From Flectonema sp. DT1601 (Eukaryota): DNA of 64,000 bases. Positions 14,944 through 53,939 of this stretch are shown piece after piece (the first letter of the stretch is position 1; each line of letters starts with the position of its first letter). Location: contig OZ025786.1 of assembly GCA_964019425.1 (NCBI GenBank), positions 372,001 through 436,000 of the forward strand, read 5' to 3'. The notes beneath the pieces are model-generated. The model searched no databases and was not told the DNA's origin. It was given only the letters and a program-made list of their open reading frames with translations. The translations under genes and the position numbers were made by a program.

Positions 14944-15216
14944 TTGCCCATAACCGATGATCTAGTGTCAACAAAAGAAGAAAAGAAAAAAGGAAAAAAA
15001 AAAGTTGTTTCTACTCTTCCTTACCTGAGAATTTAAGTGTTTCTCCCGTACCGACTCTGTCTTTAGTGGGATTTTTTTTCACTCCGGTTTTCTTTTTGAG
15101 TTGGTACCCGGTCTCATCAATGGAACGATCTCTGGTAAAGAATTATTTTCACACAGCGCAGAAACAATGTAATCATAGTCCCGATAAACCTATTGGAACA
15201 CTGCAAAGGATGTATG

Positions 15217-15345
15217 TTAGAGGCGTTCAGCCATAATCCATCCAGTGGTAGCATCACGGCACTGTCCGATCGGACAACCGTAGATACCAGGGACTAGAAA
15301 CGGGAGTTCCTCTCGTACTACCCCGTATTGCTGTCGACATACACC
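15217..15345 (-). pseudogene. LSU (28S) rRNA fragment including the sarcin-ricin loop
   Basis: Minus strand reads ...gtagtacgagaggaac...ggattatggctgaacgcctctaa; differs from 36740-36868 at one base. Confidence 0.88.
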
Positions 15346-21844: not shown

Positions 21845-24300
21845 ATTGCTGTTTTTTTTTTGTTATTTTTAAAAAGATTTGTATTGCTGATAACTTCTTG
21901 TTGATTAAGTTGCTGTGCTATAATTATTGCTGTACACTGGAAAGGGTTTATTGTTGTGGATCTTCCCTCTCCCTCCTCTTTTTTTATTTTATTTTATTTT
22001 ATTTTTTTTTTTAATTGTCGCAATCATCACGTTAAAGAACTCCAAAGCAAGTTTCCCAATTCCCACCGAATGAGTCTGATTTCTTTATTTTTGTTGCGTT
22101 TTTTAATGCTCTTGAGCATTCCTTAAGCAGTGGTTGTATTGATGGTATTGCACGAGTGGGAAAAAAAAGAAAATTAAAAAAGAAGAAGAGGAGGCCTCTC
22201 AATCCACAAATAAGTTAACTCTTACTTGTGACACTTTGTTATGTTGTCCGTACGATACAAGCAAAACGAGTACACCGAATAAAGCTTGAGTGTAGTCTGG
22301 CGCTTTAATACGTCTTCGTTTCTTTTTAGTTTCTTTTTTCAACAATCACGCAAAATAACAATAAAAAATAAACTATTTTTGTATTTCATTAAAACGCAGA
22401 CAGAATCCTGTCGCACACCATAGGAAATAACGGCTTTCAATCTCAACAGTTTCTTCTCCTAGATCAGAGAATCGGCTGGCAAACTAAAACAAAAAGAGAT
22501 CCAATTATGATGTTTATATTCTCGTACAGGTTGTATTTTAATAAAACTATTAACCTCAAACTATGTCGGATTGAGATTCTTTTATGTCATGTGAGTCCGT
22601 ATTAATGTCTTCGATCAACAAAATATAAGGCGTTATCTGAATTGTTTTTTCAATCTCTGGCTTTGAGTCCCTTATAAAGATGCTAACCATAAAAGTTGGA
22701 TGTGATCACCACTGGTCATCACGCCATGCGATTTATTTTATTTTATTTTATTTTTGTTTTTGTTTCCCCTAACTATGCAATTTTTAAGCATAAAAACTAA
22801 TTGCTTTTTTTTGTTTTGTTTTTTTTAATCTTATTTTCCTGGAGGCTTAGACGCCTCCCTCGCAGTTTTGTTTTGTAATTTTGCACATCTCACTGTACTT
22901 GTGCCTTAAGAAATATGACAAATTATTTACAGGTCATGTGCGATGATGTTTTAATTGAAGAAAAAAAAAAAAAAAAAGCTTTTTAAAATTTTCTGCTGAT
23001 TGTTGTTAGGGTACGCTGTCTCTGAGTACTTTGCATTCTCAAGTTGTAATTATTTAATTACCGAGAGGGGTTCTCAAGACTATCGTACACCGCAAGGATT
23101 GATGCTCACGTTCTTCTTTTTGTTTTGGTTTTTCATTATTGGAATCTATGTCTTACCTGTGACAACAACGTACAACGTACGAATCCGGGAAGACGACTGA
23201 TTGAATTGAATATCTTTGGGAAGGTTGTATTCTGTTGTTGTTTTTCTTTCTTTCTTTCTTCCAGATGTTAGGCTCCCTCTGGACATCATTCCCGCAACCC
23301 TTATCTACATCGAAAATAATTATTATTACAAAAGTCATTTCATTAATGATGTTGCACACAATTGTTTGAGGGAATCGACTATCAACGACATCAAGTTTTA
23401 TTATTTTATTTTTTTCAATCAACAGTAATATAAATTAATATCACGTTTGCCTTACGTGGGTTATCAGTGAACTGTCGTACTTTGTTGAGGAAAGTTAGCA
23501 AGTAACGTAATTATTTTGAACGCCCAGCAAAACAAAATGAACGTTATAGTTCGTAGTATCGGATTGGAGATGAGTACGTTTCCAGTTGACTCGGAGACAA
23601 CAGTGAAGTCCTTAATGAGCGGTATGTCGTATTCAAGTGTCGTGTGTGATGTTTACTTCGAAGGGAACCTGTTGAAGCACTCTAGCAAAGTTGTTGATTG
23701 TGGAATTTCTGGAGATGGTGAAATAGAAATCAGATTAACTGATGACCTGGAAAGACTGACCAAAGGTCTGTCACGTTACATATCAGAATCTATTTTCAAC
23801 TTCAACGTTGGCGTGTATCGTAATCTGAGTAGAAATCTATCTCCCAATACGACATATGAAGGGGAGAGTTTGATTTCAAGGTGTGTTGTCAAAGGCAACA
23901 CTGACTGTTTGAGAGAAATGATAAATTCTACTGATGTCGATCTAAACAAACGCAACGATGAATCTGATGAAGATCAATCTCCGTTAAACCTGGCGATTGT
24001 TTACAAGAAACACCTGGTGTTTGATCTTCTCAGATCAAACGGGGGTGTTGCTTTCAAGGCGGATATTCTCTCCGCTTGCAACGTGGGTAACGAGTATGCA
24101 TTTGATAAACTTATATCAAATTGTGTTGATGTTAATGATTTCTTGGGAATGAATACCGAAGACGTCAACGAGCTATTGATATGTGCAATTGAAAGAAAGG
24201 ATACCCACATCTTCAACACCCTTGTTGCAAAGAATGCTAATCTCAATCAGGAGATTATTTGTCAGGTTGCTGACGACAACCACTTTTCTTTGAACTAACT
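21845..24300 (+). repeat. Segment duplicated, with insertions, at ~28275-32530
   Basis: 22100-22680 matches 28480-29550; 23120-23200 matches 30157-30239; 23200-24295 matches 31510-32530. Confidence 0.85.
23537..24298 (+). CDS. Ubiquitin-like N-terminus + ankyrin-like repeat protein (paralog A)
   Basis: MNVIVRSIG..VDSETTVKSL..VYFEGNLL..VVDCGISGDGEIEI (UBL fold); SPLNLAIVY and LLICAIE (ankyrin-like). Confidence 0.7.
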   Translation: MNVIVRSIGLEMSTFPVDSETTVKSLMSGMSYSSVVCDVYFEGNLLKHSSKVVDCGISGDGEIEIRLTDDLERLTKGLSRYISESIFNFNVGVYRNLSRNLSPNTTYEGESLISRCVVKGNTDCLREMINSTDVDLNKRNDESDEDQSPLNLAIVYKKHLVFDLLRSNGGVAFKADILSACNVGNEYAFDKLISNCVDVNDFLGMNTEDVNELLICAIERKDTHIFNTLVAKNANLNQEIICQVADDNHFSLN

Positions 24301-27102: not shown

Positions 27103-27390
27103 TTCCTTCAGGGGAGGGTTTAGTTGGAGGTGAGTGTGGATGGGCATCGCTGAATTTTGTTGTTAAGACTATCTTTATTTTAACCGAATAAATTTCAACT
27201 AAGTACAAGAACTGTAACAAGCGTTCTACGAGGAACACTAAAAAGGCAGAACCTGTCAACAATGGGAGCAAAAACCATCCCATGATGGCTGGTTCTCTTT
27301 AACCGTTCCAAATCCACTAGTACGTGGATCGCCGCATTCGTTTTAAACAAAGTTGGTGCACGAATGTCACACTACTTATCTCTTTTGATC
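27103..27390 (+). mobile_element. Diverged, frameshifted relic of the Josephin-like domain of the Penelope-like element
   Basis: Translates in pieces as SGEGLVGGECGWASLNF, QAFYEE, KPSHDGWFSL and AAFVLNKVGARMSHY, versus SGEGLLGGECGWASLNF, QRFYEE, KPSPDGWFSL and AALILHKAKTRMTHF at 47370-47700. Confidence 0.8.
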
Positions 27391-27565
27391 TCAACCGCAG
27401 CTACAGCTAGACATTTACGTGCGTTCCGGAAAATCCAATGTGCCAGGTTTTGTGAACCCGTTCACCCTCTACCACCGCATCCCAAGCAGATTAGGCACTG
27501 TCACGAGGTCCTGACTACAGCGGACTGATTAATTATTATTAATTAGAAAGGGGGGAGGGGATTTC

Positions 27566-28035
27566 AAATCTCAATCCGACATAGTTTGAGGTTAATAGTT
27601 TTATTAAAATACAACCTGTACGAGAATATAAACATCATAATTGGATCTCTTTTTGTTTTAGTTTGCCAGCCGATTCTCTGATCTAGGAGAAGAAACTGTT
27701 GAGATTGAAAGCCGTTATTTCCTATGGTGTGCGACAGGATTCTGTCTGCGTTTTAATGAAATACAAAAATAGTTTATTTTTTATTGTTATTTTGCGTGAT
27801 TGTTGAAAAAAGAAACTAAAAAGAAACGAAGACGTATTAAAGCGCCAGACTACACTCAAGCTTTATTCGGTGTACTCGTTTTGCTTGTATCGCACGGACA
27901 ACATAACAAAGTGTCACAAGTAAGAGTTAACTTATTTGTGGATTGAGAGGCCTCCTCTTCTTCTTTTTTAAATTTTTTTCCCCACTCTTGCAATGTCATC
28001 AGTACAAACACTGCTTAAGGAATGCTCAAGAGCAT
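27566..28035 (-). repeat. Inverted copy of ~22105-22577, followed by a near-palindrome (~27870-28680) centred near 28260
   Basis: Reverse complement of the 22.1-22.6 kb intergenic block; 28020-28245 and 28275-28500 are inverted copies of each other. Confidence 0.8.
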
Positions 28036-28726
28036 TAAAGAAACGCAACAAAAAAACACAAACAAAAGAAAACCAGTACCGATGTTGCCAGACTCAATCG
28101 CAATGTTCGCAACAAAAAAGGAGGGAGAGGGAAGATCTACAACAATAAACCCTTTCCAGTGTACAGCAATAATTATAGCACAGCAACTTAATCAACAAGA
28201 AGTTATCAGCGAATTTAAAGAAATATTTAAAAAGAAAACAGCAATGGGTCGACAATAAACTTTTGTACTCGTCCCATTGCTGTTTTTTTTTTTGTTATTT
28301 TTAAAAAGATTTCTATTGCTGATAACTTCTTGTTGATTAAGTTGCTGTGCTATAATTATTGCTGTACACTGGAAAGGGTTTATTGTTGTAGATCTTCCCT
28401 CTCCCTCCTTTTTTGTTGCGAACATTGCGATTGAGTCTGGCAACATCGGTACTGGTTTTCTTTTGTTTGTGTTTTTTTGTTGCCTTTTTTTAATGCTGAG
28501 CGTTCCTGAAGCAGTGTTTGTACTGATGACATTGCACGAGTAGGAAAAAAAAATTAAAAAAAGTAGAAGAGGAGGCCTCTCAATCCACAAATAAGTTAAC
28601 TCTTACTTGTGACACTTTGTTATGTTGTCCGTGCGATACAAGCAAAACGAGTACACCGCATAAGGCTTGAGTGTAGTCTGGTGCTTTAATGTTTCGTCTC
28701 TTTTTAGTTTCGTTTTTCAACAATCA

Positions 28727-29209
28727 TTTTTTTTTTGGAATCGAACCCTATTTTTCCGTTACTCGTTACAGCCACGGTAGTCCACTACACTACCGTCAAA
28801 AGCTGATAGGGCAGATACTCTTGCGGGCTTGCACCACCTCAAGGGTGTGCGCTATCGCTCGGTTGACCTGTTTCATCCACTCGCCGCTGCTCGTGATTAC
28901 GTTGGTTCCTGTTTCGGTCAACTGCATCCACCACATTCCCAAGGGTTTAATCAAAAGAAGTAACTGTGTTGGACTTTTCAGACATGTATTAACAATGGAG
29001 TTACCATTGTTATCCAACTGAACTATGAGACTTGCATGGCTTAATCCTTGAAACAAGCATATGACTACTGGCAGGATCAACCAGGTTTCTTGTTACTCTA
29101 ACCAACAGGGAGTACCCGAAAGTACGCACCCGAGAGTTGAAAGCATCAAGACGTTGGTTGTCTCTTTTTTCCCGCAGTTCTGATAGAGGAGTCACCACCA
29201 GACCTTTTA
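28727..29209 (-). pseudogene. Retroposed pre-rRNA fragment: probable 5'ETS (29088-29209) + 5' part of 18S (28737-29087) + A10 tail
   Basis: Minus strand aacctggttgatcctgccagtagtcatatgcttgtttcaaggattaagccatgc ... gggttcgattcc(A)10; 15-bp TSD gtttttcaacaatca at 28712-28726 and 29210-29224; empty site at ~22335. Confidence 0.92.
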
Positions 29210-31309: not shown

Positions 31310-31475
31310 GGTACTTGTCTACGGCTGGGTTGATTTAGTATACCACAAAATTCTTTTCTCGATTGTAGTGACAAGTACGTGATGTCAACCTCCCGAATCG
31401 GACGGAAATGAGCCGAACGATGCGGCGCAATAAAATTGCCGCTTCGATCGAAATTTTTATAATCTTTTTTTGAAA
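31310..31475. repeat. Structured dispersed repeat, also upstream of each HMG-box gene (~37375, 41153, 44856, 48398)
   Basis: ggtacttgtctacggctgggttgatttagta...gacaagta..gtcaacctcccga...ccgaacgatgcggc...tgccgc.tcgatcgaaatt is shared. Confidence 0.8.
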
Positions 31476-31781
31476 AAAGCTGTCATTTTACGAATCCTGA
31501 AAGACGTCTGATTGAATATCTTTGGGAAAGGTTGTATTCTGTTGTTGTTTTTCTTTTCTTTCTTTCTTTCTTTCTTCCAGATGTTAGGCTCCCTCTGGAC
31601 ATCATTCCCGCAACCCTTATCTACATCGAAAATAATTATTATTACAAAAGTCATTTCATTAATGATGTTGCACACAATTGTTTGAGGGAATCGACTATCA
31701 ACGACGAAGTTTATTAATGCAAATTAATATCAAGTAACATAATTATTTTAAACATTCAGCAAAACAAAACAGAACAGAACA

Positions 31782-35998: not shown

Positions 35999-36732
35999 CT
36001 TCCCCCCTTGGGAGTTTTGCTTTGGAAAAAAAAAAAAAAAAAAAAAAAAAGTTCGTTGATTAGTGTGAAATGAAATCGAAACTTCCCCTTGTGATAGCAA
36101 AGTTTGTCTTGTTTTTTGTTTTCGGGTAGTTGATTACTAAGGACGGTATCCTTCAACGCTCTCTTGTCTCTGTAGTAGCCTGGTAAATTAATGACAGAGC
36201 TGACGTACAGCCTGTTAAATTTGCGTTATCATTTGGGTTTTCTTTATATTCTTCGACTTTTCTTTTTATTTTCATCGTATTTAGATGATAAGAGGGGGGG
36301 GGTATCACGGAATTTTCTTTAATGAAATTAGTAACAATTCTGAAGACGTTTTACAACACACACTTGATTGTTAGGCGTTGTTTTCTTATCTGTGGCTTGC
36401 ATTGGAAGTGAGTTTTTTTTAAATTTCTTTTTTCTCAGATTAGTTAATTTCGTTTTGAATTTGAAAATATTTATCAGTCAAAATTATTTTTTGCAACCAA
36501 AAAAAAACACCATATTACCATTTTCTCACTGAGCAAGGTAATATGTTATTTTTGCTCGATTTTTTTTTTTTTTTGGAATCGGGGAGGGTGCGATCTGTCA
36601 AAATTGCATAGGAATGTGCTTTTAAACATAGATAGTGCTACTAAAAGGAGATTAATGTCTCTTTGCAATGATAAATGTTAATTCCGACCCTGGATTCATT
36701 GGAGAGATCGAGAAAATCTGAGTAAAAATCAC

Positions 36733-36931
36733 TTCTGGCTTAGAGGCGTTCAGCCATAATCCATCCAGTGGTAGCATCACGGCACTGTCCGATCAGACAA
36801 CCGTAGATACCAGGGACTAGAAACGGGAGTTCCTCTCGTACTACCCCGTATTGCTGTCGACATACACCGCCCCGAGGGAGTCTCTCTCCATCAGTAGGGT
36901 AAAACCAACCTGTCTCACGACGGTCTAACCC
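36733..36931 (-). pseudogene. LSU (28S) rRNA fragment (sarcin-ricin region)
   Basis: Minus strand ttagaccgtcgtgagacaggttggttttaccctactgatg...agtacgagaggaac...ggctgaacgcctctaagccagaa. Confidence 0.9.
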
Positions 36932-37034
36932 CTAATTTTGTTTTTTTTATTACTTCCTTTCTTCCCTCCTGCCCTCAAGAGATTACACTAAGGACTAACT
37001 AACTAGGTTCTAAGGGACTTCAATATAGAATGAC

Positions 37035-37104
37035 GTCCCTTAGAACTTACTGATGAAGGCCTAAAAAGGGACAAGTAGTATAAGATTAAGGCTCCTGGAA
37101 CTAC
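37035..37104 (+). ncRNA. Permuted hammerhead ribozyme copy with core mutation (GAAA to GGAA), probably impaired
   Basis: Same as the other copies but cctggaactac instead of cctgaaactac. Confidence 0.55.
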
Positions 37105-37644
37105 ATATTCTATTACCCTTTGATGTTAGGAAACTGCAGAAATGAGTACTTTTCTGTTACTAATCTCTACTTTTTATTCTCACTTTTCTATACTAAAATT
37201 AATAAAACTAGCTAACCAAGTTCTTCTTGGCGGAAACCAGAGCCTCATTCAGGATATCACCGAATAGTCTCAAAGTAAGTTCAAAAAGACTGGTAGTAAC
37301 AACCTGCTTCACTGGCACATGCTTAGTACTCTTTAATATATTTTTGCTCGATTTTTTTTCTCTGGATCCCGCTGGGTACTTGTCTATGGCTGGGTTGATT
37401 TAGTAAACCACAAAATTTCTTTTCCCGGTTTTGGCGACAAGTATGTGATGTCAACCTCCCGATTTCGTTCGGAAATGAACCGAACGATGCGGCATTAAAA
37501 TGCCGCCTCGACCGAAATTCTTACACCTTCTTTCGAAAATCCTTTTCATTTTCCAGAATTTGGTCGCAAAAAATAATTTTTACTGATTTTTTTTTTTGTT
37601 TTTATTAGATTTCAGTTTTCTTCTCTATACAGCCGACTGTGTCA

Positions 37645-38327
37645 ATGCAGGCCTCACGCCTTACGAGGTCAGCGATACATCTTTCCAGATGCAGAAGCTC
37701 TTGGCTGCAAACAAGAACGAAGCCTACGGCCATACCTGTAAGTTCGTCCACACCAGTAGATACCTCCCCGCCTGTGAGGCATAATACTGTACGGAATGCG
37801 AAGCGAAGAATGGAACGATTATTACGACTCCACGATGGGGAAGAGCCACAAGTAGAAAAGAAGAATTTACCTTGTACTCCGTTTGCGGCCTACGCACGCT
37901 CTCGAAGTAAAAATTTCAAAGAAGCTGCCGCAGGGTGGAGGGTATGTCATCATATCGGTTTTTTAAAAAAATGATAAAAATAATTTGCTGTTGGCTATGT
38001 TAAAAAACCTTGAGGCTTCACGAGGTCGTGCTTCCATAAGGCGCTGCTTACTAGCTGGTATACACAACCCGACCACAGGAGATGAGTGACACTGAGAAGG
38101 TTCCGTATTTTGAAGTGGCCAGCAAAAACAGGGCGAGTATGAAGCAGTGTGAAGCACCAAATAAAAGTAGGAACTCGTACGCGGCTTTTGTGAAAGCGAA
38201 TTATGGCGATGTACGTGCTAAAGTGATGGAAGAAAACAAATTCGATGAAGATAAAGTTTCTATCTATAAACAAACAATAAGAAGAGTTGCAATACTATAC
38301 AGAGAACAACACAGAGTAAATCGGTAA
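37645..38327 (+). CDS. HMG-box protein copy 1, possibly mitochondrial; exons 37645-37941, 38079-38327
   Basis: Phase-0 gtatgt..cacag intron joins PFAAY..FKEAAAGWR|EMSDTEKVPYFEVASKNR (HMG-box helices); second box-like NSYAAFVK..RRVAILY; Arg/Ser-rich, acid-free N-terminus; polypyrimidine-AG at 37631. Confidence 0.72.
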
Positions 38328-38535
38328 CGAATACTAATTAACAATACCGGATTCTACGAACACTGCACTGAGTGCACTCATTGAAATCATCATATCCAGT
38401 TGATCAATTTACATTAGAGCTCTGATAGTGTATTGACTAACATTGTATCTGCGTTGTTTTTTTTTTTTTTTTATAATACGAAATTATTATTATTATTATT
38501 ATTTATTTATTTTTTTAATTTTCAGAACGGAATAG

Positions 38536-39285
38536 ATGTCGAAGGATGCTGGTTGGCTAAATAACATCACCGACGGTTTAGAAAGTGAAAATAAAAGTGT
38601 TAAAGAAATTCCTGTTGGTGAAGTTAGATTTTACCCCTTCGGAACACCTGAATTTATAACATACGAGGAATTCTTACTGCTTCCAAGGTGTACTGATATT
38701 ACTTTGGAAGATGTAAGTGAGAGAAGTATTGAGGATGAAAAAATTCGAATTTTTGAAACTTTTCAAACAAAACGAGAACACGAACTTACCAACCACTGGG
38801 ATCTTCAAGAAATGCCGAATAATGAACCATCCTTCAAACATCATTCACTATTAGGAAAGATAGAATCGATGGTTTCAGCAACAATAAAATTTCTCGCTAT
38901 CTGGGGGGTCCTATACCTATTCATAATCGCATTAGGCATCATGGGCAACGCCTTTAAAGTTCTTGGTGGGAAGTCATCGGGCAAAACCTTCAGAGAAAGT
39001 TCCTTGTTATCTAACCCAGTGTCTGGTCTCTGTATAGGTATTTTAGCTACAGTATTAATGCAGTCGTCATCTACTACTACTTCTATAGTCATATCGATGG
39101 CAGCGTCTAACTTGGTTTCGGTGAAAAATGCTGCTAACTTAGTCATGGGTGCCAACATAGGTACATCTATAACTAACACTCTGGTTTCAATAGCTCACTT
39201 AAATAGTCCAGAGCAATATCGAAGAGCGTTTACCGCTGCTGTATTTCACGATATGTTTAACTGGCTTACGGTGTCAGTGTTTCTT
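38536..39285 (+). pseudogene. 5' fragment of the SLC34 gene (copy 1), interrupted by the retroelement
   Basis: Near-identical to 49549-50298, then switches to RT sequence. Confidence 0.9.
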
Positions 39286-40601
39286 AAATTGAAGCAAAAA
39301 ATCTAGACTTAGCTCGGCAACATGACCACTCGTGTAGATACATCGACGACTTCCTCACCTGGAGTTGTGACCCTCCACCAGCAAGCCTGTACTCAATGGA
39401 TTACACTGATACTTCAAATAATATCGATGACGTCTCTTATATAGGAATTTGTATCCGAATAGAGATCACTAACACGAATAAACGATGGATTCGTTTAAGT
39501 GTTAATGACAAAGCCAGGGGTTGGCATATTACGCCAACAAGGTTTACCCATCAGCATTCCGCAGCTCAAGAATCAATGGGTTCAGGTATCTTTACTACCA
39601 TGATTTTGCGAGCTTTAAAAAATTGCAACAATCAGGCAGATTTTTTACAAGAACTTGAAGCGGTAACATATAGATTACTCAACCGGGGCTGTAAATCTGA
39701 CAATATCAGAGCAGCATGCCTCCGCTTCATTAGCTCTCACATTGATGATGGTAATACTGCAGCTGCAATGCGTCGACGTATCAACCTTACTTTTGAGAAG
39801 TTTAGTCACAAAGTCCCATTAAGCATCGAAAAGGATACAATTAACCATACGGGCTCTGCAAGCCATTCCTTGGATAAACGATTTCCATCATCCCTACATC
39901 AAGCATCAGGAGAAGGTCTACTCGGTGGAGAATGCGGATGGGCATCGCTCAACTTCATTGCAGATCATTTATATATTGATAGAATTAGCTTTAGTTTTCT
40001 GCAAAACTACCAACAGAGATTTTATGAAGAATCTCTTAAAGTAGAACCGAACAACTCAGAGCATAAACCATCACCAGATGGTTGGTTCTCGCTACAAGTA
40101 CTTAACATGGCTTGCATGACCAAATTCAACAGGAGAATCGAGTACTTCGTTAACCCAGCAGATTTCGAATATCCTGATACAGCCGCAGCACTTATTCTGC
40201 ATAAAGCGAAAACAAGGATGACTCACTTCTATTGTTGCGCTGGTCTCATTTGAGTCCATCCGAGACATTCTTAAAGGCACAAAGGATTTAAGACTCCCTT
40301 TCGATCATTTTGACAAGATGTACCGAACTACAGAATATAGTTTCCATATGATACCATTAAAAGCTCAGACTGATATGGATGTTACAATGACACCTGCGAA
40401 TATAGGGCCTTTGATGGTATGCGAAGATAAAGTAAAACGCAAATTGGATGACGACTCAACCATTAACTCGACTGTAATAGTGAAACGACCAGACGTCAAA
40501 AATTCAAATTGAGCAAAAGCAAATAAACATTGCTAGCCCTATCCTGGCGAGCTCCGATGGATTTTTATCTTAGAACGATAGCAACTTCAACATAGAATGA
40601 A

Positions 40602-40671
40602 GTCCCTTAGAACTTACTGATGAAGGCCTAAAAAGGGACAAGTAGTATAAGATTAAGGCTCCTGAAACTAC
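40602..40671 (+). ncRNA. Non-circularly permuted hammerhead ribozyme (predicted cut after 40647)
   Basis: ctta-CTGATGA-agg ... gtagt-A-taag ... cct-GAA-actac: stems I, II and III all pair; extra helix gtccctt/aagggac. Confidence 0.72.
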
Positions 40672-40812
40672 ATATTCTATTACCCTTTGATGTTAGGAAA
40701 CTGTGGAAATGAATACTTTTCTTTTACTAATCTCTACTTTTCTTATTCTCACTTTTCTGTTCTAAAGTTAATGATACTAACTAGGTTCTAAGGGACTTCA
40801 ACATAGAATGAG

Positions 40813-40882
40813 GTCCCTTAGAACTTACTGATGAAGGCCTAAAAAGGGACAAGTAGTATAAGATTAAGGCTCCTGAAACTAC
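40813..40882 (+). ncRNA. Permuted hammerhead ribozyme, second tandem copy
   Basis: Identical core 211 nt downstream of the previous copy. Confidence 0.7.
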
Positions 40883-41421
40883 ATATTCTATTACCCTTTG
40901 ATGTTAGGAAACTGCAGAAATGAGTACTGTTCTTTTACTAATCTCTACTTTTTATTCTCACTTTTCTATACTAAAATTAATAAAACTAGCTAACCAAGTT
41001 CTTCTTGGCGGAAACCAGAGCCTCATTCAGGATATCACCGAATAGTCTCAAAGTAAGTTCAAAAAGACTGGTAGTAACAACCTGCTTCACTGGCACATGC
41101 TTAGTACTCTTTAATATATTTTTGCTCGATTTTTTTTCTCTGGATCCCGCTGGGTACTTGTCTACGGCTGGGTTGATTTAGTAAACCACAAAATTTCTTT
41201 TCTCGGTTTTGTCGACAAGAATGTAATGTCAACCTCCCGATTTCGTTCGGAAATGAACCGAACGATGCGGCATTAAAATGCCGCCTCGATCGAAATTTTT
41301 ACACCTTCTTTCGAAAATCCTTTTCATTTTCCAGCATTTGGTCGCAAAAAATAATTTTTACTGATTTTTTTTTTGTTTTTATTGGATTTCAGTTTTCTTC
41401 TCTATACAGCCGACTGTGTCA

Positions 41422-42095
41422 ATGCAGGCCTCACGCCTTACGAGGTCAGCGATACATCTTTCCAGATGCAGAAGCTCTTGGCTGCAAATAAGAACGAAGC
41501 CTACGGCCATACCTGTAAGTTCGTCCACACTAATAGATACCTCCCCGCCTGTGAGGCATAATATTGTACGGAATGCGAAGCGAAGAATGGAACGATTATT
41601 ACGACTCCACGATGGGGAAAAGCCACAAGTAGAAAAGAAGAATTTACCTTGTACTGCGTTTGCGGCCTACGTACTCTCTCGAAGTAAAAATTTCAAAGAA
41701 GCTGCCGCAGGGTGGAGGGTATGTCATCATATCGGTTTTTTAAAAAAATGATAAAAATAATTTGCTGTTGGCTATATTAAAAAACCTTGAGGCTTCACGA
41801 GGTCGTGCTTCCATAAGGCGCTGCTTACTAGCTGGTATACACAACCCGACCACAGGAGATGAGTGACACTGAGAAGGTTCCGTATTTTGAAGTGGCCAGC
41901 AAAAACAGGGCGAGTATGAAGCAGTGTGGAGTACCAACGAACTCGTACGCGGCTTTTGTGAAATCGAATTTTGGCGATGTACGTGCTAAAGTGGTGGAAG
42001 AAAACAAATTCGATAAAGATAAAGTTTCTATCTTTAAACAAACATTAAGAAGAGTTGCAATACTATACAGAGAACACCACAGAGTAAATCGGTAA
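41422..42095 (+). CDS. HMG-box protein copy 2; exons 41422-41718, 41856-42095
   Basis: Same structure as copy 1; intact frame and splice sites. Confidence 0.72.
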
Positions 42096-42301
42096 CGAAT
42101 ACTAATTAACAATACCGGATTCTACGAACACTGCACTGAGTGCACTCATTGAAATCATCATACGCAGTTGATCAATTTACATTAGAGCTCTGATAGTGTA
42201 TTGACTAACATTGTATCTGCGTTGCTTTTTTTTTTTTTATAATACGAAATTATTATTATTATTATTATTTATTTATTTTTTTAATTTTCAGAACGGAATA
42301 G

Positions 42302-42999
42302 ATGTCGAAGGATGCTGGTTGGCTAAATAACATCACCGACGGTTTAGAAAGTGAAAATAAAAGTGTTAAAGAAATTCCTGTTGGTGAAGTTAGATTTTAC
42401 CCCTTCGGAACACCTGAATTTATAACATACGAGGAATTCTTACTGCTTCCAAGGTGTACTGATATTACTTTGGAAGATGTAAGTGAGAGAAGCATTGAGG
42501 ATGAAAAAATTCGAATTTTTGAAACTTTTCAAACAAAACGAGAACACGAACTTACCAACCACTGGGATCTTCAAGAAATGCCGAATAATGAACCATCCTT
42601 CAAACATCATTCACTATTAGGAAAGATAGAATCGATGGTTTCAGCAACAATAAAATTTCTCGCTATCTGGGGGGTCCTATACCTATTCATAATCGCATTA
42701 GGCATCATGGGCAACGCCTTTAAAGTTCTTGGTGGGAAGTCATCGGGCAAAACCTTCAGAGAAAGTTCCTTGTTATCTAACCCAGTGTCTGGTCTCTGTA
42801 TAGGTATTTTAGCTACAGTATTAATGCAGTCGTCATCTACTACTACTTCTATAGTCATATCGATGGCAGCGTCTAACTTGGTTTCGGTGAAAAATGCTGC
42901 TAACTTAGTCATGGGTGCCAACATAAGTACATCTATAACTAACACTCTGGTTTCAATAGCTCACTTAAGTTTAACTGGCTTACGGTGTCAGTGTTTCTT
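42302..42999 (+). pseudogene. 5' fragment of the SLC34 gene (copy 2) with a 52-bp deletion
   Basis: Lacks the equivalent of 39203-39254. Confidence 0.9.
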
Positions 43000-44819
43000 A
43001 AATTGAAGCAAAAAATCTAGACTTAGCTCGGCAACATGACCACTCGTGTAGATACATCGACGACTTCCTCACCTGGAGTTGTGACCCTCCACCAGCAAGC
43101 CTGTACTCAATGGATTACACTGATACTTCAAATAATATCGATGACGTCTCTTATATAGGAATTTGTATCCGAATAGAGATCACTAACACAAATAAACGAT
43201 GGATTCGTTTAAGTGTTAACGACAAAGCCAGGGGTTGGCATATTACACCAACAAGGTTTACCCATCAGCATTCCGCAGCTCAAGAATCAATGGGTTCAGG
43301 TATCTTTACTACCATGATCTTGCGAGCTTTAAAAATTTGCAACAATCAGGCAGATTTTTTACAAGAACTTGAAGCGGTAACATATAGATTACTCAACCGG
43401 GGCTGTAAATCTGACAATATCAGAGCAGCATGCCTCCGCTTCATTAGCTCTCACATTGATGATGGTAATACTGCAGCTGCAATGCGTCGACGTATCAACC
43501 TTACTTTTGAGAAGTTTAGTCACAAAGTCCCATTAAGCATCGAAAAGGATACAATTAACCATACGGGCTCTGCAAGCCATTCCTTGGATAAACGATTTCC
43601 ATCATCCCTACATCAAGCATCAGGAGAAGGTCTACTCGGTGGAGAATGCGGATGGGCATCGCTCAACTTCATTGCAGATCATTTATATATTGATAGAATT
43701 AGCTTTAGTTTTCTGCAAAACTACCAACAGAGATTTTATGAAGAATCTCTTAAAGTAGAACCGAACAACTCAGAGCATAAACCATCACCAGATGGTTGGT
43801 TCTCGCTACAAGTACTTAACATGGCTTGCATGACCAAATTCAACAGGAGAATCGAGTACTTCGTTAACCCAGCAGATTTCGAATATCCTGATACAGCCGC
43901 AGCACTTATTCTGCATAAAGCGAAAACAAGGATGACTCACTTCTATTGTTGCGCTGGTCTCATTTGAGTCCATCCGAGACATTCTTAAAGGCACAAAGGA
44001 TTTAAGACTCCCTTTCGATCATTTTGACAAGATGTACCGAACTACAGAATATAGTTTCCATATGATACCATTAAAAGCTCAGACTGATATGGATGTTACA
44101 ATGACACCTGCGAATATAGGGCCTTTGATGGTATGCGAAGATAAAGTAAAACGCAAATTGGATGACGACTCAACCATTAACTCGACTGTAATAGTGAAAC
44201 GACCAGACGTCAAAAATTCAAATTGAGCAAAAGCAAATAAACATTGCTAGCCCTATCCTGGCGAGCTCCGATGGATTTTTATCTTAGAACGATAGCAACT
44301 TCAACATAGAATGAAGTCCCTTAGAACTTACTGATGAAGGCCTAAAAAGGGACAAGTAGTATAAGATTAAGGCTCCTGAAACTACATATTCTATTACCCT
44401 TTGATGTTAGGAAACTGTGGAAATGAATACTTTTCTTTTACTAATCTCTACTTTTCTTATTCTCACTTTTCTGTTCTAAAGTTAATGATACTAACTAGGT
44501 TCTAAGGGACTTCAACATAGAATGAGGTCCCTTAGAACTTACTGATGAAGGCCTAAAAAGGGACAAGTAGTATAAGATTAAGGCTCCTGAAACTACATAT
44601 TCTATTACCCTTTGATGTTAGGAAACTGCAGAAATGAGTACTGTTCTTTTACTAATCTCTACTTTTTATTCTCACTTTTCTATACTAAAATTAATAAAAC
44701 TAGCTAACCAAGTTCTTCTTGGCGGAAACCAGAGCCTCATTCAGGATATCACCGAATAGTCTCAAAGTAAGTTTAAAAAGACTGGTAGTAACAACCTGCC
44801 TCACTGGCACTCTTTAATA
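43000..44819 (+). mobile_element. Penelope-like element copy 2 (hammerheads at 44316-44385 and 44527-44596)
   Basis: Near-identical to copy 1. Confidence 0.8.
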
Positions 44820-45123
44820 TATTTTTGCTCGATTTTTTTTCTCTGGATCCCGCTGGGTACTTGTCTACGGCTGGGTTGATTTAGTAAACCATAAAATTTC
44901 TTTTCTCGGTTTTGTCGACAAGAATGTAATGTCAACCTCCCGATTTCGTTCGGAAATGAACCGAACGATGCGGCATTAAAATGCCGCCTCGATCGAAATT
45001 TTTACACCTTCTTTCGAAAATCCTTTTCATTTTCCAGCATTTGGTCGCAAAAAATAATTTTTACTGATTTTTTTTTGTTTTTATTGGATTTCAGTTTTCT
45101 TCTCTATACAGCCGACTGTGTCA

Positions 45124-45797
45124 ATGCAGGCCTCACGCCTTACGAGGTCAGCGATACATCTTTCCAGATGCAGAAGCTCTTGGCTGCAAACAAGAACGAA
45201 GCCTACGGCCATACCTGTAAGTTCGTCCACACTAGTAGATACCTCCCCGCCTGTGAGGCATAATATTGTACGGAATGCGAAGCGAAGAATGGAACGATTA
45301 TTACGACTCCACGATGGGGAAAAGCCACAAGTAGAAAAGAAGAATTTACCTTGTTCTCCGTTTGCGGCCTACGTACTCTCTCGAAGTAAAAATTTCAAAG
45401 AAGCTGCCGCAGGGTGGAGGGTATGTCATCATATCGGTTTTTTAAAAAAATGATAAAAATAATTTGCTGTTGGCTATATTAAAAAACCTTGAGGCTTCAC
45501 GAGGTCGTGCTTCCATAAGGCGCTGCTTACTAGCTGGTATACACAACCCGACCACAGGAGATGAGTGACACTGAGAAGGTTCCGTATTTTGAAGTGGCCA
45601 GCAAAAACAGGGCGAGTATGAAGCAGTGTGGAGTACCAACGAACTCGTACGCGGCTTTTGTGAAATTGAATTTTGGCGATGTACGTGCTAAAGTAGTGGA
45701 AGAAAACAAATTCGATAAAGATAAAGATTCTATCTTTGGAAAAACATTAAGAAGAGTTGCAATACTATACAGAGAACACCACAGAGTAAATCGGTAA
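45124..45797 (+). CDS. HMG-box protein copy 3; exons 45124-45420, 45558-45797
   Basis: Same structure as copy 1; intact. Confidence 0.72.
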
Positions 45798-46003
45798 CGA
45801 ATACTAATTAACAATACCGGATTCTACGAACACTGCACTGAGTGCACTCATTGAAATCATCATACGCAGTTGATCAATTTACATTAGAGCTCTGATAGTG
45901 TATTGACTAACATTGTATCTGCGTTGCTTTTTTTTTTTTTATAATACGAAATTATTATTATTATTATTATTTATTTATTTTTTTAATTTTCAGAACGGAA
46001 TAG

Positions 46004-46753
46004 ATGTCGAAGGATGCTGGTTGGCTAAATAACATCACCGACGGTTTAGAAAGTGAAAATAAAAGTGTTAAAGAAATTCCTGTTGGTGAAGTTAGATTTT
46101 ACCCCTTCGGAACACCTGAATTTATAACATACGAGGAATTCTTACTGCTTCCAAGGTGTACTGATATTACTTTGGAAGATGTAAGTGAGAGAAGCATTGA
46201 GGATGAAAAAATTCGAATTTTTGAAACTTTTCAAACAAAACGAGAACACGAACTTACCAACCACTGGGATCTTCAAGAAATGCCGAATAATGAACCATCC
46301 TTCAAACATCATTCACTATTAGGAAAGATAGAATCGATGGTTTCAGCAACAATAAAATTTCTCGCTATCTGGGGGGTCCTATACCTATTCATAATCGCAT
46401 TAGGCATCATGGGCAACGCCTTTAAAGTTCTTGGTGGGAAGTCATCGGGCAAAACCTTCAGAGAAAGTTCCTTGTTATCTAACCCAGTGTCTGGTCTCTG
46501 TATAGGTATTTTAGCTACAGTATTAATGCAGTCGTCATCTACTACTACTTCTATAGTCATATCGATGGCAGCGTCTAACTTGGTTTCGGTGAAAAATGCT
46601 GCTAACTTAGTCATGGGTGCCAACATAGGTACATCTATAACTAACACTCTGGTTTCAATAGCTCACTTAAATAGTCCAGAGCAATATCGAAGAGCGTTTA
46701 CCGCTGCTGTATTTCACGATATGTTTAACTGGCTTACGGTGTCAGTGTTTCTT
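46004..46753 (+). pseudogene. 5' fragment of the SLC34 gene (copy 3)
   Basis: Same junction as copies 1 and 2. Confidence 0.9.
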
Positions 46754-48361
46754 AAATTGAAGCAAAAAATCTAGACTTAGCTCGGCAACATGACCACTCG
46801 TGTAGATACATCGACGACTTCCTCACCTGGAGTTGTGACCCTCCACCAGCAAGCCTGTACTCAATGGATTACACTGATACTTCAAATAATATCGATGACG
46901 TCTCTTATATAGGAATTTGTATCCGAATAGAGATCACTAACACAAATAAACGATGGATTCGTTTAAGTGTTAACGACAAAGCCAGGGGTTGGCATATTAC
47001 ACCAACAAGGTTTACCCATCAGCATTCCGCAGCTCAAGAATCAATGGGTTCAGGTATCTTTACCACCATGATCTTGCGAGCTTTAAAAATTTGCAACAAT
47101 CAGGCAGATTTTTTACAAGAACTTGAAGCGGTAACATATAGATTACTCAACCGGGGCTGTAAATCTGACAATATCAGAGCAGCATGCCTCCGCTTCATTA
47201 GCTCTCACATTGATGATGGTAATACTGCAGCTGCAATGCGTCGACGTATCAACCTTACTTTTGAGAAGTTTAGTCACAAAGTCCCATTAAGCATCGAAAA
47301 GGATACAATTAACCATACGGGCTCTGCAAGCCATTCCTTGGATAAACGATTTCCATCATCCCTACATCAAGCATCAGGAGAAGGTCTACTCGGTGGAGAA
47401 TGCGGATGGGCATCGCTCAACTTCATTGCAGATCATTTATATATTGATAGAATTAGCTTTAGTTTTCTGCAAAACTACCAACAGAGATTTTATGAAGAAT
47501 CTCTTAAAGTAGAACCGAACAACTCAGAGCATAAACCATCACCAGATGGTTGGTTCTCGCTACAAGTACTTAACATGGCTTGCATGACCAAATTCAACAG
47601 GAGAATCGAGTACTTCGTTAACCCAGCAGATTTCGAATATCCTGATACAGCCGCAGCACTTATTCTGCATAAAGCGAAAACAAGGATGACTCACTTTATT
47701 GTTGCGCTGGTCTCATTTGAGTCCATCCGAGACATTCTTAAAGGCACAAAGGATTTAAGACTCCCTTTCGATCATTTTGACAAGATGTACCGAACTACAG
47801 AATATAGTTTCCATATGATACCATTAAAAGCTCAGACTGATATGGATGTTACAATGACACCTGCGAATATAGGACCTTTGATGGTATGCGAAGATAAAGT
47901 AAAACGCAAATTGGATGACGACTCAACCATTAACTCGACTGTAATAGTGAAACGACCAGACGTCAAAAATTCAAATTGAGCAAAAGCAAATAAACATTGC
48001 TAGCCCTATCCTGGCGAGCTCCGATGGATTTTTATCTTAGAACGATAGCAACTTCAACATAGAATGAAGTCCCTTAGAACTTACTGATGAAGGCCTAAAA
48101 AGGGACAAGTAGTATAAGATTAAGGCTCCTGAAACTACATATTCTATTACCCTTTGATGTTAGGAAACTGCAGAAATGAGTACTGTTCTTTTACTAATCT
48201 CTACTTTTTATTCTCACTTTTCTATACTAAAAATAATAAAACTAGCTAACCAAGTTCTTCTTGGCGGAAACCAGAGCCTCATTCAGGATATCACCGAATA
48301 GTCTCAAAGTAAGTTTAAAAAGACTGGTAGTAACAACCTGCCTCACTGGCACTCTTTAATA
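46754..48361 (+). mobile_element. Penelope-like element copy 3: open frame ~46756-47979, single hammerhead 48069-48138
   Basis: YIDD at 46807-46818; RT thumb and Josephin-like domain in one uninterrupted frame; candidate catalytic Cys 47401-47403 and His 47692-47694. Confidence 0.82.
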
Positions 48362-48666
48362 TATTTTTGCTCGATTTTTTTTCTCTGGATCCCGCTGGGT
48401 ACTTGTCTACGGCTGGGTTGATTTAGTAAACCATAAAATTTCTTTTCTCGGTTTTGGCGACAAGTATGTGATGTCAACCTCCCGATTTCGTTCGGAAATG
48501 AACCGAACGATGCGGCATTAAAATGCCGCTGCGATCGAAATTTTTACATCTTTTTTCGAAAATCCTTTTCATTTTCCAGAATTTGGTCGCAAAAAATAAT
48601 TTTTACTGATTTTTTTTTTGTTTTTATTGGATTTCAGTTTTCTTCTCTATACAGCCGACTGTGTCA

Positions 48667-49340
48667 ATGCAGGCCTCACGCCTTACGAGGTCAGCGATAC
48701 ATCTTTCCAGATGCAGAAGCTCTTGGCTGCAATCAAGAACGAAGCCTACGGCCATACCTGTAAGTTCGTCCACACTAATAGATACCTCCCCGCCTGTGAG
48801 GCATAATATTGTACGGAATGCGAAGCGAAGAATGGAACGATTATTACGACTCCACGATGGGGAAGAGCCACAAGTAGAAAAGAAGAATTTACCTTGTACT
48901 GCGTTTGCGGCCTACGTACTCTCTCGAAGTAAAAGTGTCACAGAAGCTGCCGCAGGGTGGAGGGTATGTCATCATATCGGTTTTTTAAAAAAATGATAAA
49001 AATAATTTGCTGTTGGCTATATTAAAAAACCTTGAGGCTTCACGAGGTCGTGCTTCCATAAGGCGCTGCTTACTAGCTGGTATACACAACCCGACCACAG
49101 GAGATGAGTGACACTGAGAAGGTTCCGTATTTTGAAGTGGCCAGCAAAAACAGGGCGAGTATGAAGCAGTGTGGAGTACCAACGAACTCGTACGCGGCTT
49201 TTGTGAAATTGAATTTTGGCGATGTACGTGCTAAAGTAGTGGAAGAAAACAAATTCGATAAAGATAAAGTTTCTATCATTAAACAAACATTAAGAAGAGT
49301 TGCAATACTATACAGAGAACAACACAGAGTAAATCGGTAA
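48667..49340 (+). CDS. HMG-box protein copy 4; exons 48667-48963, 49101-49340
   Basis: Same structure as copy 1; intact. Confidence 0.72.
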
Positions 49341-49548
49341 CGAATACTAATTAACAATACCGGATTCTACGAACACTGCACTGAGTGCACTCATTGAAAT
49401 CATCATACGCAGTTGATCAATTTACATTAGAGCTCTGATAGTGTATTGACTAACATTGTATCTGCGTTGCTTTTTTTTTTTTATAATACGAAATTATTAT
49501 TATTATTATTATTATTTATTTATTTTTTTAATTTTCAGAACGGAATAG

Positions 49549-52500
49549 ATGTCGAAGGATGCTGGTTGGCTAAATAACATCACCGACGGTTTAGAAAGTG
49601 AAAATAAAAGTGTTAAAGAAATTCCTGTTGGTGAAGTTAGATTTTACCCCTTCGGAACACCTGAATTTATAACATACGAGGAATTCTTACTGCTTCCAAG
49701 GTGTACTGATATTACTTTGGAAGATGTAAGTGAGAGAAGCATTGAGGATGAAAAAATTCGAATTTTTGAAACTTTTCAAACAAAACGAGAACACGAACTT
49801 ACCAACCACTGGGATCTTCAAGAAATGCCGAATAATGAACCATCCTTCAAACATCATTCACTATTAGGAAAGATAGAATCGATGGTTTCAGCAACAATAA
49901 AATTTCTCGCTATCTGGGGGGTCCTATACCTATTCATAATCGCATTAGGCATCATGGGCAACGCCTTTAAAGTTCTTGGTGGGAAGTCATCGGGCAAAAC
50001 CTTCAGAGAAAGTTCCTTGTTATCTAACCCAGTGTCTGGTCTCTGTATAGGTATTTTAGCTACAGTATTAATGCAGTCGTCATCTACTACTACTTCTATA
50101 GTCATATCGATGGCAGCGTCTAACTTGGTTTCGGTGAAAAATGCTGCTAACTTAGTCATGGGTGCCAACATAGGTACATCTATAACTAACACTCTGGTTT
50201 CAATAGCTCACTTAAATAGTCCAGAGCAATATCGAAGAGCGTTTACCGCTGCTGTATTTCACGATATGTTTAACTGGCTTACGGTGTCAATGTTTCTTCC
50301 CCTCGAAGCCTCTTGTGGGTTTCTTGTTGAAATTGCAGGTGCTGCAGTTGACAGTATGGCTCTTGGAGGCAAACATCAAAAAACTGAATTTATAAAAACA
50401 ATAACGAACCCAGCTACTGGCAGAGTAGTATCAGTTGACAACGGATTGATTGAAAAGATTGCTGAAGCACGCACTAGCAAAGAAGTAGCCGATCTTGAAA
50501 AGATTTCAATCATTAAGAAGAAATCAGGATTTGTCCTTCGAGACACCCCACAATCTGATAGTGAAGCCGGCATACTATTGCTCGTTGTCGCTATAACAAT
50601 GCTTTGTACATGTTTGCTTCTTTTAGTTAAGTTATTGCAATCTGTTTTGAAAGGTAAGGTAGCTGTGTACACTAGGAAGGTATTAAATCTCGATTTTCAA
50701 CATAAATATTTAAAAATGTTCGGAGGCCTTGATAACTACATTCTTCTATTTGTCGGAACTGGAATGACTGTTTTGGTTCAGTCCAGTTCCGTATTCACAT
50801 CAACGTTAACGCCTCTGGTTGGAATCGGGTTAATTCACATTGAAAAGGTTGTGGCATTGACTCACGGAGCAAATATTGGAACTACAGTCACAGGTGTAAT
50901 ATCAGCCCTTGCTGGTGATAATGTTGTAATAGGTATGCGTGTTGCTCTAGAACACGTTTTATTCAATTGTCTCGGCACAGTCATCTGGTTCGTTATTTGG
51001 CCTCTTCGCCCTGTGCCTCTCGCTGCTGCGAAATTCTTAGGCGACACGGCCTCAAACTTACGTTGGTTTCCATTTGCCTACATCATTGTTTGCTTTATAA
51101 TAGTTCCTGTAGTGGTTATTGCTCTTTCGATTCCAGGATGGCAGGTACTGTTGGCAGTTGGTCTTCCTATCCTTCTCGCTATATTATTCATCACTGGTTG
51201 GACATGGGTGAGAAGAAACAGAGCTGACTTACTACCACGTGGAGGGTGTCTGAGATCTGATGTTTCTCTCTGCGGGTGTAAATATCCGAACTGGATGCAA
51301 GTTTGGGGAGGAGACCGCAGTCAAGACAATGTCGATATGGAAGAAATGAAAAGAAAAGAAGCTAAGGCAGAGTCCGACAAGGTAACTGAGTGGCCATTGT
51401 CTCCAACGGCATGGGGCCTTGGTACCTTATCTCTTCTTGGACTCTTGCTGGCTATCCCAACTGCACAATGGAGGCGTATCCGTTATGCGAATGAAACTCG
51501 TGGAAGAAAGGAATATGGTTTTGGTCTCTGGGAAATCTGTTCTGATGACTTTACTAAGGATTCTCAATGGGCTACTACACCTCCCTTATGTAATCAAGAG
51601 CAGATAAATGACTGCGCAAAGGACTTATCTCGCAGCTGCACAACTAAAAGCTGGGCTGATACATCCCTTCCAACTATGCATGAGAATGATATGTATGAGA
51701 GCACTTGGAAGACCTGTTCAAAACTTGGGTGTCGAGTGTCGGATTGGTTGAAATACTGTCCAGACATTAGTAATTGTTCTTTAGGTAATTATCACTCTAG
51801 TCGATGTATTGAAGTAGTTGATAATTATGAATTTCATAAACACAATCAAATGGATTTGAATGATGTTACTTACTCATATCCGGGAGACGATCCTGGAGCG
51901 CTGACACCTCCGCTGGAGAGAACCCCAACACATGCTAGCGTTTTTTTCTCTGGTGTTTCTAACAGTTACTCAGTATCGACGTTTCTTGTTGCCCCAAAAA
52001 TGATTAATACCATTAACGGAGAGAATGCATCTTGTGCTGACTGCACTGAAACATGTGCCAACTCCAGCATTGGAAAGTTTTGTACTGATGCTCCAAGTAT
52101 CACTGGTATTGCATACGATTACTGCTCTGGGGATTTCCTTATTGTTTCTGGACGAGGTCCAGCTTCAGAATGCAGCATCGGAACTATTTTCCCTTTCTCA
52201 TCATTTACACCATCAATATCAGTGATGACCCTCACAGTTGGTAAGAATTCACAATCTAATTCAGCTATTCTAAAAGAGAGAACACCATTAGCATATTACA
52301 ATAACAACAACACTGTTACTTTTGCTTCAGGTCTACCTAATGTGAAAGAATGGTACTCACCATTGCCTATTGATGATTGTCTTGGTGAGCAGGATGTTAA
52401 TGATGTTGGTATCGGTATCAACATAAATGATATTCACATCCTTCAATACCATAATAATACTACAGAAGGTGTGTATGTGGGTTCTGATGAGTATGAGGCA

Positions 52501-53939
52501 AAAATAGTTTTTTGGAACCATGATGGCGAAATCATTGCTACCTACTCTCCTCAAAAGACAAAAAACAACAGCACTCAACCCAACGGAATCCACATTGAAA
52601 TCCTGCCTAGTGAATTTGGATCACGGAATAGAGAAAGTGGAAGAATAACAATGGCAATTAATGCGAATAAAACTAAAATGGTAGTCTGTTCAGGTGTTGG
52701 TGGTAGTAGTCCTGTCGTAGCTTGTGCCATGCTGGGTATCAGTAACTTCACTCAACCAGACTTATTAGGTACAAAAATTGTACTTCACAACGAAGCATCT
52801 GCTGAATACAACACCAACGTCAGAGGTAGAAGCTCAAAGCAAGGAGATGTAAACTTTGTTTCTGCTCAATGGCTCCGCAATGGTAGGATTCTATTTCTAG
52901 AACAGGGAAAAGTATGTGACGTTTCCCCTTTTTTTTAAAAAAACATCAAATCGGAAAATAAATTTAACACCCCCAACAGTTTTCTGAAAACAAACTCGGA
53001 GGTACTTTATATATCGCTGATTTCGAAACAGGAAATGATATTTCCCTTCCAAGTAGCACTTCGTTAGATACCATAAAAAAAGCTTCTGTAAGAGTGGTAA
53101 TGAATGACTTGAAAACGAGTGAATTGAAATTTGAAGCAGATCCACAAGCATATGTTAATCTTGCAAAGATTAGTGCCCGACCAGTAAATATGGAAAAGCT
53201 AATGGATCTCAATGATATTGACGACGATGCTAAAGGCTTCATGAAATCATCTCCAATAGGAGCGATGCATATCCTAAATGAATACAGCCTTGTACTCGGT
53301 GAAGACAACAGTTTTGGAATAACTGGACAATCATATTCAAAAGTCCATATAATAAATTTAACTAATAAATTACTAACAGATACTACTGTTTGCTCATTGC
53401 CATCAAAAACCAAACCAAAGATAATTAAGGGAACTCAAAACTGTCGACTCATTTCATCAGTGTGCCCTGAAGGGGGTCTCGCTAGAGACATGCAATCGAT
53501 TGCCGGGGTCGTTATAACTGCAGCTGTTCTTTTATTCATCGGTCTTGTTGCAGTAGCTGCTTATGGTCGTTCAAAAAAAGCATCGATTGGTATTTATGTA
53601 GCAGCTTTGTGCTTCAGTGTTTGCTGGATTCTTCTTCTTGTTGCATGGGTTAGAGTTTCTACACTAGAAGGCAATAGATATACTTGTATGTTCCAAGATG
53701 AAGCACTACGTGGTGGGGTTGTGTTGCTGTCTGGAAGATTTGGTGTTATGACTATGCAGAGCTACTCCTGGGCATTCACTATCTTCTCTTGGGGAATGCT
53801 AACGATATCATTAGTTGCTGTGTTGCAACATGTCGTTGTTAAGTTTCGACAACGACGGCCATCAGTTCATCACCTTAAGGAGAATTCTTCAATGCCCTTT
53901 ATGGATGATTCTATACACGAATCTACAATTCTTAGTTGA
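49549..53939 (+). CDS. SLC34/NaPi-II sodium-phosphate cotransporter fused to a claudin/amastin-like 4-TM region with a large Cys-rich loop; exons 49549-52911, 52980-53939 (~1440 aa)
   Basis: Two QSSS repeats and GANIGT motifs; a phase-0 gtatgt..caacag intron joins the two ORFs; W..GLWEIC after one TM and three further TMs at the C-terminus. Confidence 0.85.

Follow-up and report, generated by a model that had tools for sequence, protein, structure and literature searches.

A putative type-CSG hammerhead ribozyme in 3' repeats of a Penelope-like element, probably Chlamys-type, from a likely diplonemid

The window analysed here is a stretch of 64,000 nucleotides of Flectonema sp. DT1601 (GenBank assembly GCA_964019425.1, contig OZ025786.1, positions 372,001 to 436,000 of the forward strand); all coordinates refer to it. 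In region 36998-50300, a 5'-truncated Penelope-like element (PLE) lies in a Na+/Pi cotransporter gene. A 2.3-kb stretch, whose start is an older copy of the element's repeat, was duplicated with the insertion, and the whole was then amplified to three units. The main features are as follows.

36998..39284, + strand: duplicated 2.3-kb flank, with a b-type copy of the motif described below, intergenic DNA and the 5' part of the host Na+/Pi cotransporter gene
39285..40783, + strand: 5'-truncated PLE, probably Chlamys-type, unit 1, with the reverse transcriptase (RT) end (YIDD), thumb, Josephin-like domain and a 3' UTR carrying the motif
42999..44497, + strand: same element, unit 2, with the same frameshift as unit 1
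46753..48248, + strand: same element, unit 3, with a frame open over 407 codons (46756-47979)

The array can be read as a block of b-type copy, host flank and 5' part of the cotransporter gene, followed by a block of element 3' part and a-type copy, the pair being repeated three times before the whole gene. The 2.3-kb flank is present in four copies, the last of which leads into the whole gene (49549-52938). In unit 1, the frameshift is at 40229 and the stop at 40510-12.

Other repeats are found in the window. A palindrome of about 900 bp (27803-28720) is made of two inverted 460-bp arms (92% identical), with a third copy at 21824-22342. Each arm contains CTGATGA, yet no hammerhead of any block order was found there. 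Pieces of rRNA lie on the minus strand between genes (15203-15331, 28736-29034 and 36728-36852); two of them are LSU rRNA pieces 99% identical to each other, one being directly upstream of the array. A dispersed 180-bp intergenic repeat occurs at 37375-37552 and 31310-31489 (82-85% identical).

The initial annotation of this DNA had placed the motif in a Penelope-like element. The RT end with YIDD and the relatives retrieved with HMMER support this assignment. The full HMMER search gave 113 relatives of the window ORF; Pfam gave the ORF no name, and a word-index protein search for longer relatives found none. The closest named relatives come from Flectonema neradi and Diplonema papillatum. A beta-COP gene of the host also has D. 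papillatum as its best named match, at 65%, within a tier of 63-76% that is set apart from a lower one at 48% or less; the host is likely a diplonemid. The RT matches the P0126 family, P0021, P0038 and P0046, all of which have a GIY-YIG domain upstream of the RT. The full-length Diplonema relative P0126 is composed of N-terminal GIY-YIG, CxC and DK motifs, the RT and a C-terminal ubiquitin hydrolase domain; it is 40% identical over 135 aa to the window element, whose copies are 5'-truncated and include no endonuclease. P0126 and P0021 align over most of the P0126 length, and by eye P0021 resembles Chlamys-1_cBra. Judged from these alignments, the element likely belongs to the Naiad/Chlamys clade.

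For a model of the ORF tail, the top three structural matches are Josephin domains (Z 8.8, rmsd 3.0, 128 residues), with a Foldseek E-value that is not significant; no sequence match to this tail was found. The Josephin-like protease fold lies behind the RT (47320-47799 in unit 3), at the place where relatives P0009, P0013 and P0015 carry a USP-type ubiquitin hydrolase, which suggests that deubiquitinase-like tails are interchangeable in these elements. 5' truncation, partial tandem repeats and an inverted piece at the 5' end are all present in the window elements. At 27108-27393, the protease-like domain of this family occurs once more as a frameshifted and decayed piece (protein identity about 60%), with no CSG motif behind it.

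The motif is located in the 3' repeat and follows the RT ORF stop at a distance of 90 nt. Its parts in the a-type copy of unit 1 are the following.

40592..40680, + strand: motif with an 8-bp closing helix (strands 40592-99/40673-80, pair probabilities 0.64-0.99)
40602..40671, + strand: a-type copy of the type-CSG hammerhead motif, with the cut predicted after 40647
40602-08/40633-39: joining helix, 7 bp, connecting the outer ends of stems I and II
40613-16/40648-51: stem I, 4 bp
40617-23: core CUGAUGA
40624-29/40656-63: stem II, 3+3 bp around a 2-nt bulge
40642-46/40667-71: stem III, 5 bp
40647: end of the cleavage site GUA (H17 = A40647)
40664-67: GAAA, 40 nt 3' of the core

From 5' to 3', the blocks in 40602-40671 are the CUGAnGA core, the cleavage site and GAAA, and stems I, II and III all adjoin the core (4, 3+3 and 5 bp). 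This is the only order possible within one copy; the circular order of types I, II and III does not occur within one unit. Stem I is A/U-rich, the first pair of stem II is A-U and the 5' strand of stem II is a 6-nt palindrome. Hammerheads tolerate a purine-pyrimidine pair at the first position of stem II, and their activity requires A13. All parts named in the initial annotation are present where it placed them, its extra 7-bp helix being the joining helix; the 8-bp closing helix had escaped it. Its view that the order is non-circular and falls outside types I, II and III is also supported, and this order has a name and a precedent, type-CSG (PMC10085705).

Five further copies, and a fold-back hairpin, are found in the array.

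37035..37104, + strand: first b-type copy, GGAA for GAAA
40782..40827, + strand: 19-bp fold-back hairpin at the 5' junction of a b copy (z -4.0, 0 of 200 shuffles)
40813..40882, + strand: b-type copy, motif identical to the a-type, with the cut predicted after 40858 and a core side that the fold-back is predicted to lock
44316..44385, + strand: a-type copy, unit 2
44527..44596, + strand: b-type copy, unit 2, with fold-back arm
48069..48138, + strand: chimeric copy, a-type on the 5' side and b-type on the 3' side, without fold-back arm

The six copies of the initial annotation thus exist, with correct starts (37035, 40602, 40813, 44316, 44527 and 48069), and the conserved core bases (CUGAnGA, GAAA, UH) are complete in five of them. 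The exception, at 37035, reads GGAA and is likely inactive, judging from this change. The 211 bp given there as the repeat length corresponds to the spacing; about 200 bp are common to the a and the b repeat, at 93.5% identity. Two lineages can be distinguished, a (40602, 44316) and b (37035, 40813, 44527), plus the a/b chimera at 48069. The a copies sit behind the element ORF and the b copies have no ORF in front of them. Copies 37035 and 48069 are single. The copies were multiplied by a local 3.7-kb tandem amplification. For the history of the array, we infer a truncated insertion (b), then a second insertion of 1.5 kb with a 2.3-kb target duplication, then tandem amplification. Since the six copies are two lineages multiplied in this way, they do not provide independent support for the motif. 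The covariation check proposed in the initial annotation, run on the six window copies, gave zero compensatory changes. We also considered the 48069 chimera as a cut-and-ligate product of the ribozyme; this origin is not favoured, as recombination within 100 identical bases explains the chimera equally well.

Secondary structure prediction gives two scaffold hairpins, with p>0.9 for most pairs. In the joining helix, six pairs have p 0.8-1.0 and the seventh 0.3; the local stem III of the a copies has p of about 0.9. The initial annotation had proposed a ribozyme either pseudoknotted or dimeric. A pseudoknotted monomer fits better and a dimer less well, because a single copy allows only the CSG order and its scaffold hairpins are predicted at p>0.9. 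The computed minimum free energy structure puts 5.5 kcal/mol into short loop helices that would have to open; stems I and II return about 11 kcal/mol (bulged) or about 17 kcal/mol (bulge-less), initiation terms removed and before pseudoknot penalties.

The 19-bp fold-back arm, also missed at first, precedes every b copy. It is predicted to pair with the 5' strands of the joining helix and of stem I, so that the joining helix of the b copies has p = 0. Three copies are predicted to be locked in this manner, and the folding model thus predicts that the b copies are switched off. The arm most likely arose at a 5'-truncated insertion junction. An evolved regulator is not favoured, as all b copies descend from one junction.

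Variants of the family were taken from assembled contigs of two public runs, X1 and X2 (marine metatranscriptome). A 709-nt X2 contig has 37 substitutions in 40009-40539 (531 nt, mostly coding) and 0 in the 70-nt motif (Fisher p 0.009). Similarly, a and b differ by 0 substitutions in the 70-nt motif and by 11 in the other 130 nt (Fisher p 0.007), a result that gene conversion between neighbouring copies could yield; conversion or consensus assembly could contribute to both comparisons. In each of the two, conservation extends beyond the motif (block 40584-40703, one difference). The sole change inside the motif, seen in X1 and in the 709-nt X2 contig, is the loss of the 2-nt bulge, which gives a perfect 6-bp stem II and shifts its computed energy from -2.9 to -9.1 kcal/mol. 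The bulge-less allele is thus present in both public runs; another X2 contig matches the bulged form across the bulge. No compensatory substitution is found within the family (six window copies plus X1 and X2 contigs). The 709-nt contig continues through the predicted cut site, so it represents uncut RNA or DNA. In a 144-nt X2 contig, the site and GAAA half is matched (window 40634-40677) and 100 unrelated letters replace the CUGAUGA half.

Taken together, these features make it probable, as read from the sequence, that the motif is a monomeric type-CSG ribozyme in the 3' repeat of a Chlamys-type PLE, likely cutting slowly after GUA at 40647. Two hairpins would form first, one with the joining helix and CUGAUGA in its loop, the other with stem III and the site and GAAA in its loop. 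The two loops would then pair to give stems I and II, and a second copy would not be needed. By standard hammerhead chemistry, the 5' product would end at 40647 in a 2',3'-cyclic phosphate and the 3' product would begin at 40648 with a 5'-OH. The cut could free element RNA from tandem or host read-through transcripts; read-through is plausible because the long host ORFs of the window are all on the + strand. PMC4209133 proposes such a release of element RNA from precursors for the hammerheads of PLEs. Cutting would be partial, since integrated copies extend across the site. The b copies begin about 63 nt before the cut, the a copies end 136 nt after it, and no insertion junction at the cut site is found among the window copies. 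The templates were therefore uncut or re-joined, which counts against a simple end-setting role. For a Poseidon element, hammerhead cleavage needed protein and was unneeded for insertion in vitro, unprocessed RNA being the main substrate (PMC11167929).

The family ribozyme may be real and the window allele impaired or protein-dependent, the bulge being a deletion-free variant that weakens stem II. The bulged stem II is indeed 6 kcal/mol weaker by computation, competing loop helices exist, both public runs hold the bulge-less allele and cleavage assisted by protein is reported for the Poseidon hammerhead (PMC11167929). However, the bulge is present in both diverged lineages a and b, with a motif otherwise identical, and in the X2 contig that matches across it; moreover, the three core-proximal pairs of stem II are intact in the bulged allele. 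We regard this explanation as rather unlikely. An active form made of two tandem copies in classical circular order, as in dimeric Penelope hammerheads, appears improbable. Both circular orders are formally possible across the a+b tandem: copy a could supply core and GAAA and copy b the site (type I-like), or copy b could supply core and GAAA and copy a the site (type III-like). The 6-nt palindrome of stem II would suit dimerization, and minimal hammerheads that act as dimers are the usual form among metazoan PLEs (PMC4209133). However, these orders need both tandem copies and must break hairpins predicted at p of about 0.9, since the local stem III of the a copies ties the site and GAAA of the same copy. 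In addition, the core side of b is predicted to be locked, copies 37035 and 48069 are single, and the nematode cases described below have local stem III of 6-12 bp and outer helices of 9-16 bp.

If short motifs had come together by chance in an AT-rich 3' UTR and had no function as a ribozyme, this would agree with the short stems and the lack of covariation within the family. A descriptor of the motif's quality gave 2 matches in 60 Mb of simulated dinucleotide-matched sequence, or 0.004 expected per window on both strands; its thresholds were set from the find itself, and admitting all six block orders would raise chance an estimated sixfold. The location in a PLE terminal repeat, a layout equal to the published CSG and the sparing of the motif in the two substitution tests also argue against chance, which we consider very improbable. 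Standard covariance models were expected in the initial annotation to miss the motif, and they do: with Rfam, no hammerhead family reaches the gathering threshold in the whole window and none appears at E<=10 in 40450-41050.

Further type-CSG motifs were looked for in published elements. Craig 2021 (PMC8557442) describes no canonical hammerhead in Naiads or most Chlamys, and flags 'half-core' cases in which GAAA and the core are 35-50 nt apart. Its supplement was searched for 8 of the 16 CTGANGAN core 8-mers, with 79 matches, line breaks hiding some; element tails were also read. By eye, six of the eight nematode Naiad consensi (File S5) fit type-CSG with different stem sequences, the outer helix, stem I, stem II and stem III having these lengths in bp.

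Naiad Parc: 11/6/5/12
Naiad 1_Nbra: 10/5/5/10
Naiad 2_Nbra: 12/5/5/6
Naiad 3_Nbra: 9/5/4/6
Naiad Hcon: 15/6/5/11
Naiad Hpol: 16/5/5/9

Five of these come from the core-word search and Hpol from its tail. The authors had labelled the six motifs HHR_core or HHR_half_core, or left them unlabelled. Across the published CSG (PMC10085705) and the six Naiads (PMC8557442), stems differ and still pair, as assessed by eye. Type-CSG is thus likely an overlooked ribozyme of six nematode Naiad elements, to judge from the consensi. In the displayed last 600 nt of Naiad_Ppac and Naiad_Asuum, no CSG was found. For Chlamys, with the same 8 of 16 core words, 0 of 22 core matches and 0 of 5 displayed tails fit (PMC8557442), which argues that CSG is not general in Chlamys. 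A different scrambled order (stem II arm, site, GAAA, core) can be read in Acropora Naiads of File S5, with three such coral consensi, and in one or more further Naiads. DNA pattern scans gave 31 + 6 loci in viral contigs, 21 in prokaryote genomes and 119 of an estimated 270 in metagenomes (29 of 64 parts covered). Among these 177 loci there is no convincing further CSG, which is weak evidence of absence as the patterns are narrow, and no RT is encoded at the first 150. A related-locus search with the window element in viral and prokaryote contigs gave no relative.

The topology was already known but is very rare, and hammerheads in PLE repeats are also known. We found neither the combination of type-CSG and PLE nor PLEs in diplonemids in print, in literature that excludes subscription papers; within the same scope, 'type-CSG' occurs together with 'hammerhead' only in PMC10085705. 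The passages covered of a bioRxiv retrozyme paper (10.64898/2026.07.22.740005) show no such combination. Type-CSG had rested on two similar environmental sequences without host, and the window element gives it a genomic home; together with the nematode cases, it forms a sequence-diverse set of examples. The finding bears on the printed statement that Naiads and most Chlamys lack canonical hammerheads and may do without them (PMC8557442). The locus and its variants also offer short natural test pairs: bulged and bulge-less, free and locked by the fold-back, GAAA and GGAA. The wider proposal, that type-CSG is a working ribozyme of N-terminal-endonuclease PLEs from diplonemids to nematodes, stands evenly balanced in our judgement, together with its corollaries. 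If true, the reported hammerhead absence in Naiad and Chlamys would in part be an artefact of the searches, the two orphan CSG RNAs from soil may be fragments of such elements, a two-hairpin kissing design would replace the dimer requirement of canonical PLE hammerheads, and a fold-back arm would be able to switch a copy off.

Type-CSG was named by Eckert 2023 (PMC10085705) for the order core-site-GAAA in two similar soil-metagenome sequences called CSG-1 and CSG-2 that cleave in vitro at 0.004 and 0.026 per min. The consensus in that paper combines an outer helix of 8 bp with an AA linker of 2 nt and a stem III of 5 bp, and its authors considered type-CSG less well supported than type-SGC as to biological relevance. 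The window motif, known from its sequence whereas CSG-1 and CSG-2 are shown to cleave, has a 7-bp outer helix and, likewise, an AA linker and a 5-bp stem III, the latter one compensatory pair apart from theirs in their Stockholm alignment. It differs by a stem I of 4 bp instead of 6, a bulged stem II, spacers of 4 + 3 nt inside the joining helix instead of none, GUA instead of GUC as the site, and the extra closing helix. The first pair of stem II is A-U, in contrast to G-C in CSG-1, CSG-2 and all six nematode cases. The window motif resides in a eukaryotic retroelement, whereas theirs come from soil metagenome contigs without context.

In PLEs, according to Cervera and de la Pena 2014 (PMC4209133), dimeric minimal hammerheads are usual in metazoans and those of protists and fungi are type I. 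Like these canonical hammerheads, the window motif lies in a terminal repeat on the sense strand and would cut precursor RNA; they are type I, whereas its order is non-circular, its stem III is local and complete, and its predicted fold is a double pseudoknot. Non-LTR retrozymes are non-coding tandem hammerhead repeats with circular RNA, whereas a+b is a two-copy tandem joined to an RT ORF.

Chlamys is the closest match for the element. Its design is N-terminal GIY-YIG/CxC/DK plus RT, and Chlamys-1_cBra has a Josephin-like C-terminal extension (PMC8557442). The window element shares the Josephin-like extension, 5' truncation, partial tandems and the inverted 5'-junction piece, and its RT is nearest to relatives with N-terminal GIY-YIG, CxC and DK motifs. 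Unlike Chlamys as described there, it resides in a likely diplonemid host (the main text of that paper nowhere contains 'Euglen') and carries a putative CSG hammerhead, canonical hammerheads being absent, according to the paper, from all Naiads and most Chlamys. The nematode Naiads of File S5 have longer, GC-richer stems and a G-C first pair of stem II, and share with the window motif the CSG order and an outer helix near the 3' end of PLEs with an N-terminal endonuclease.
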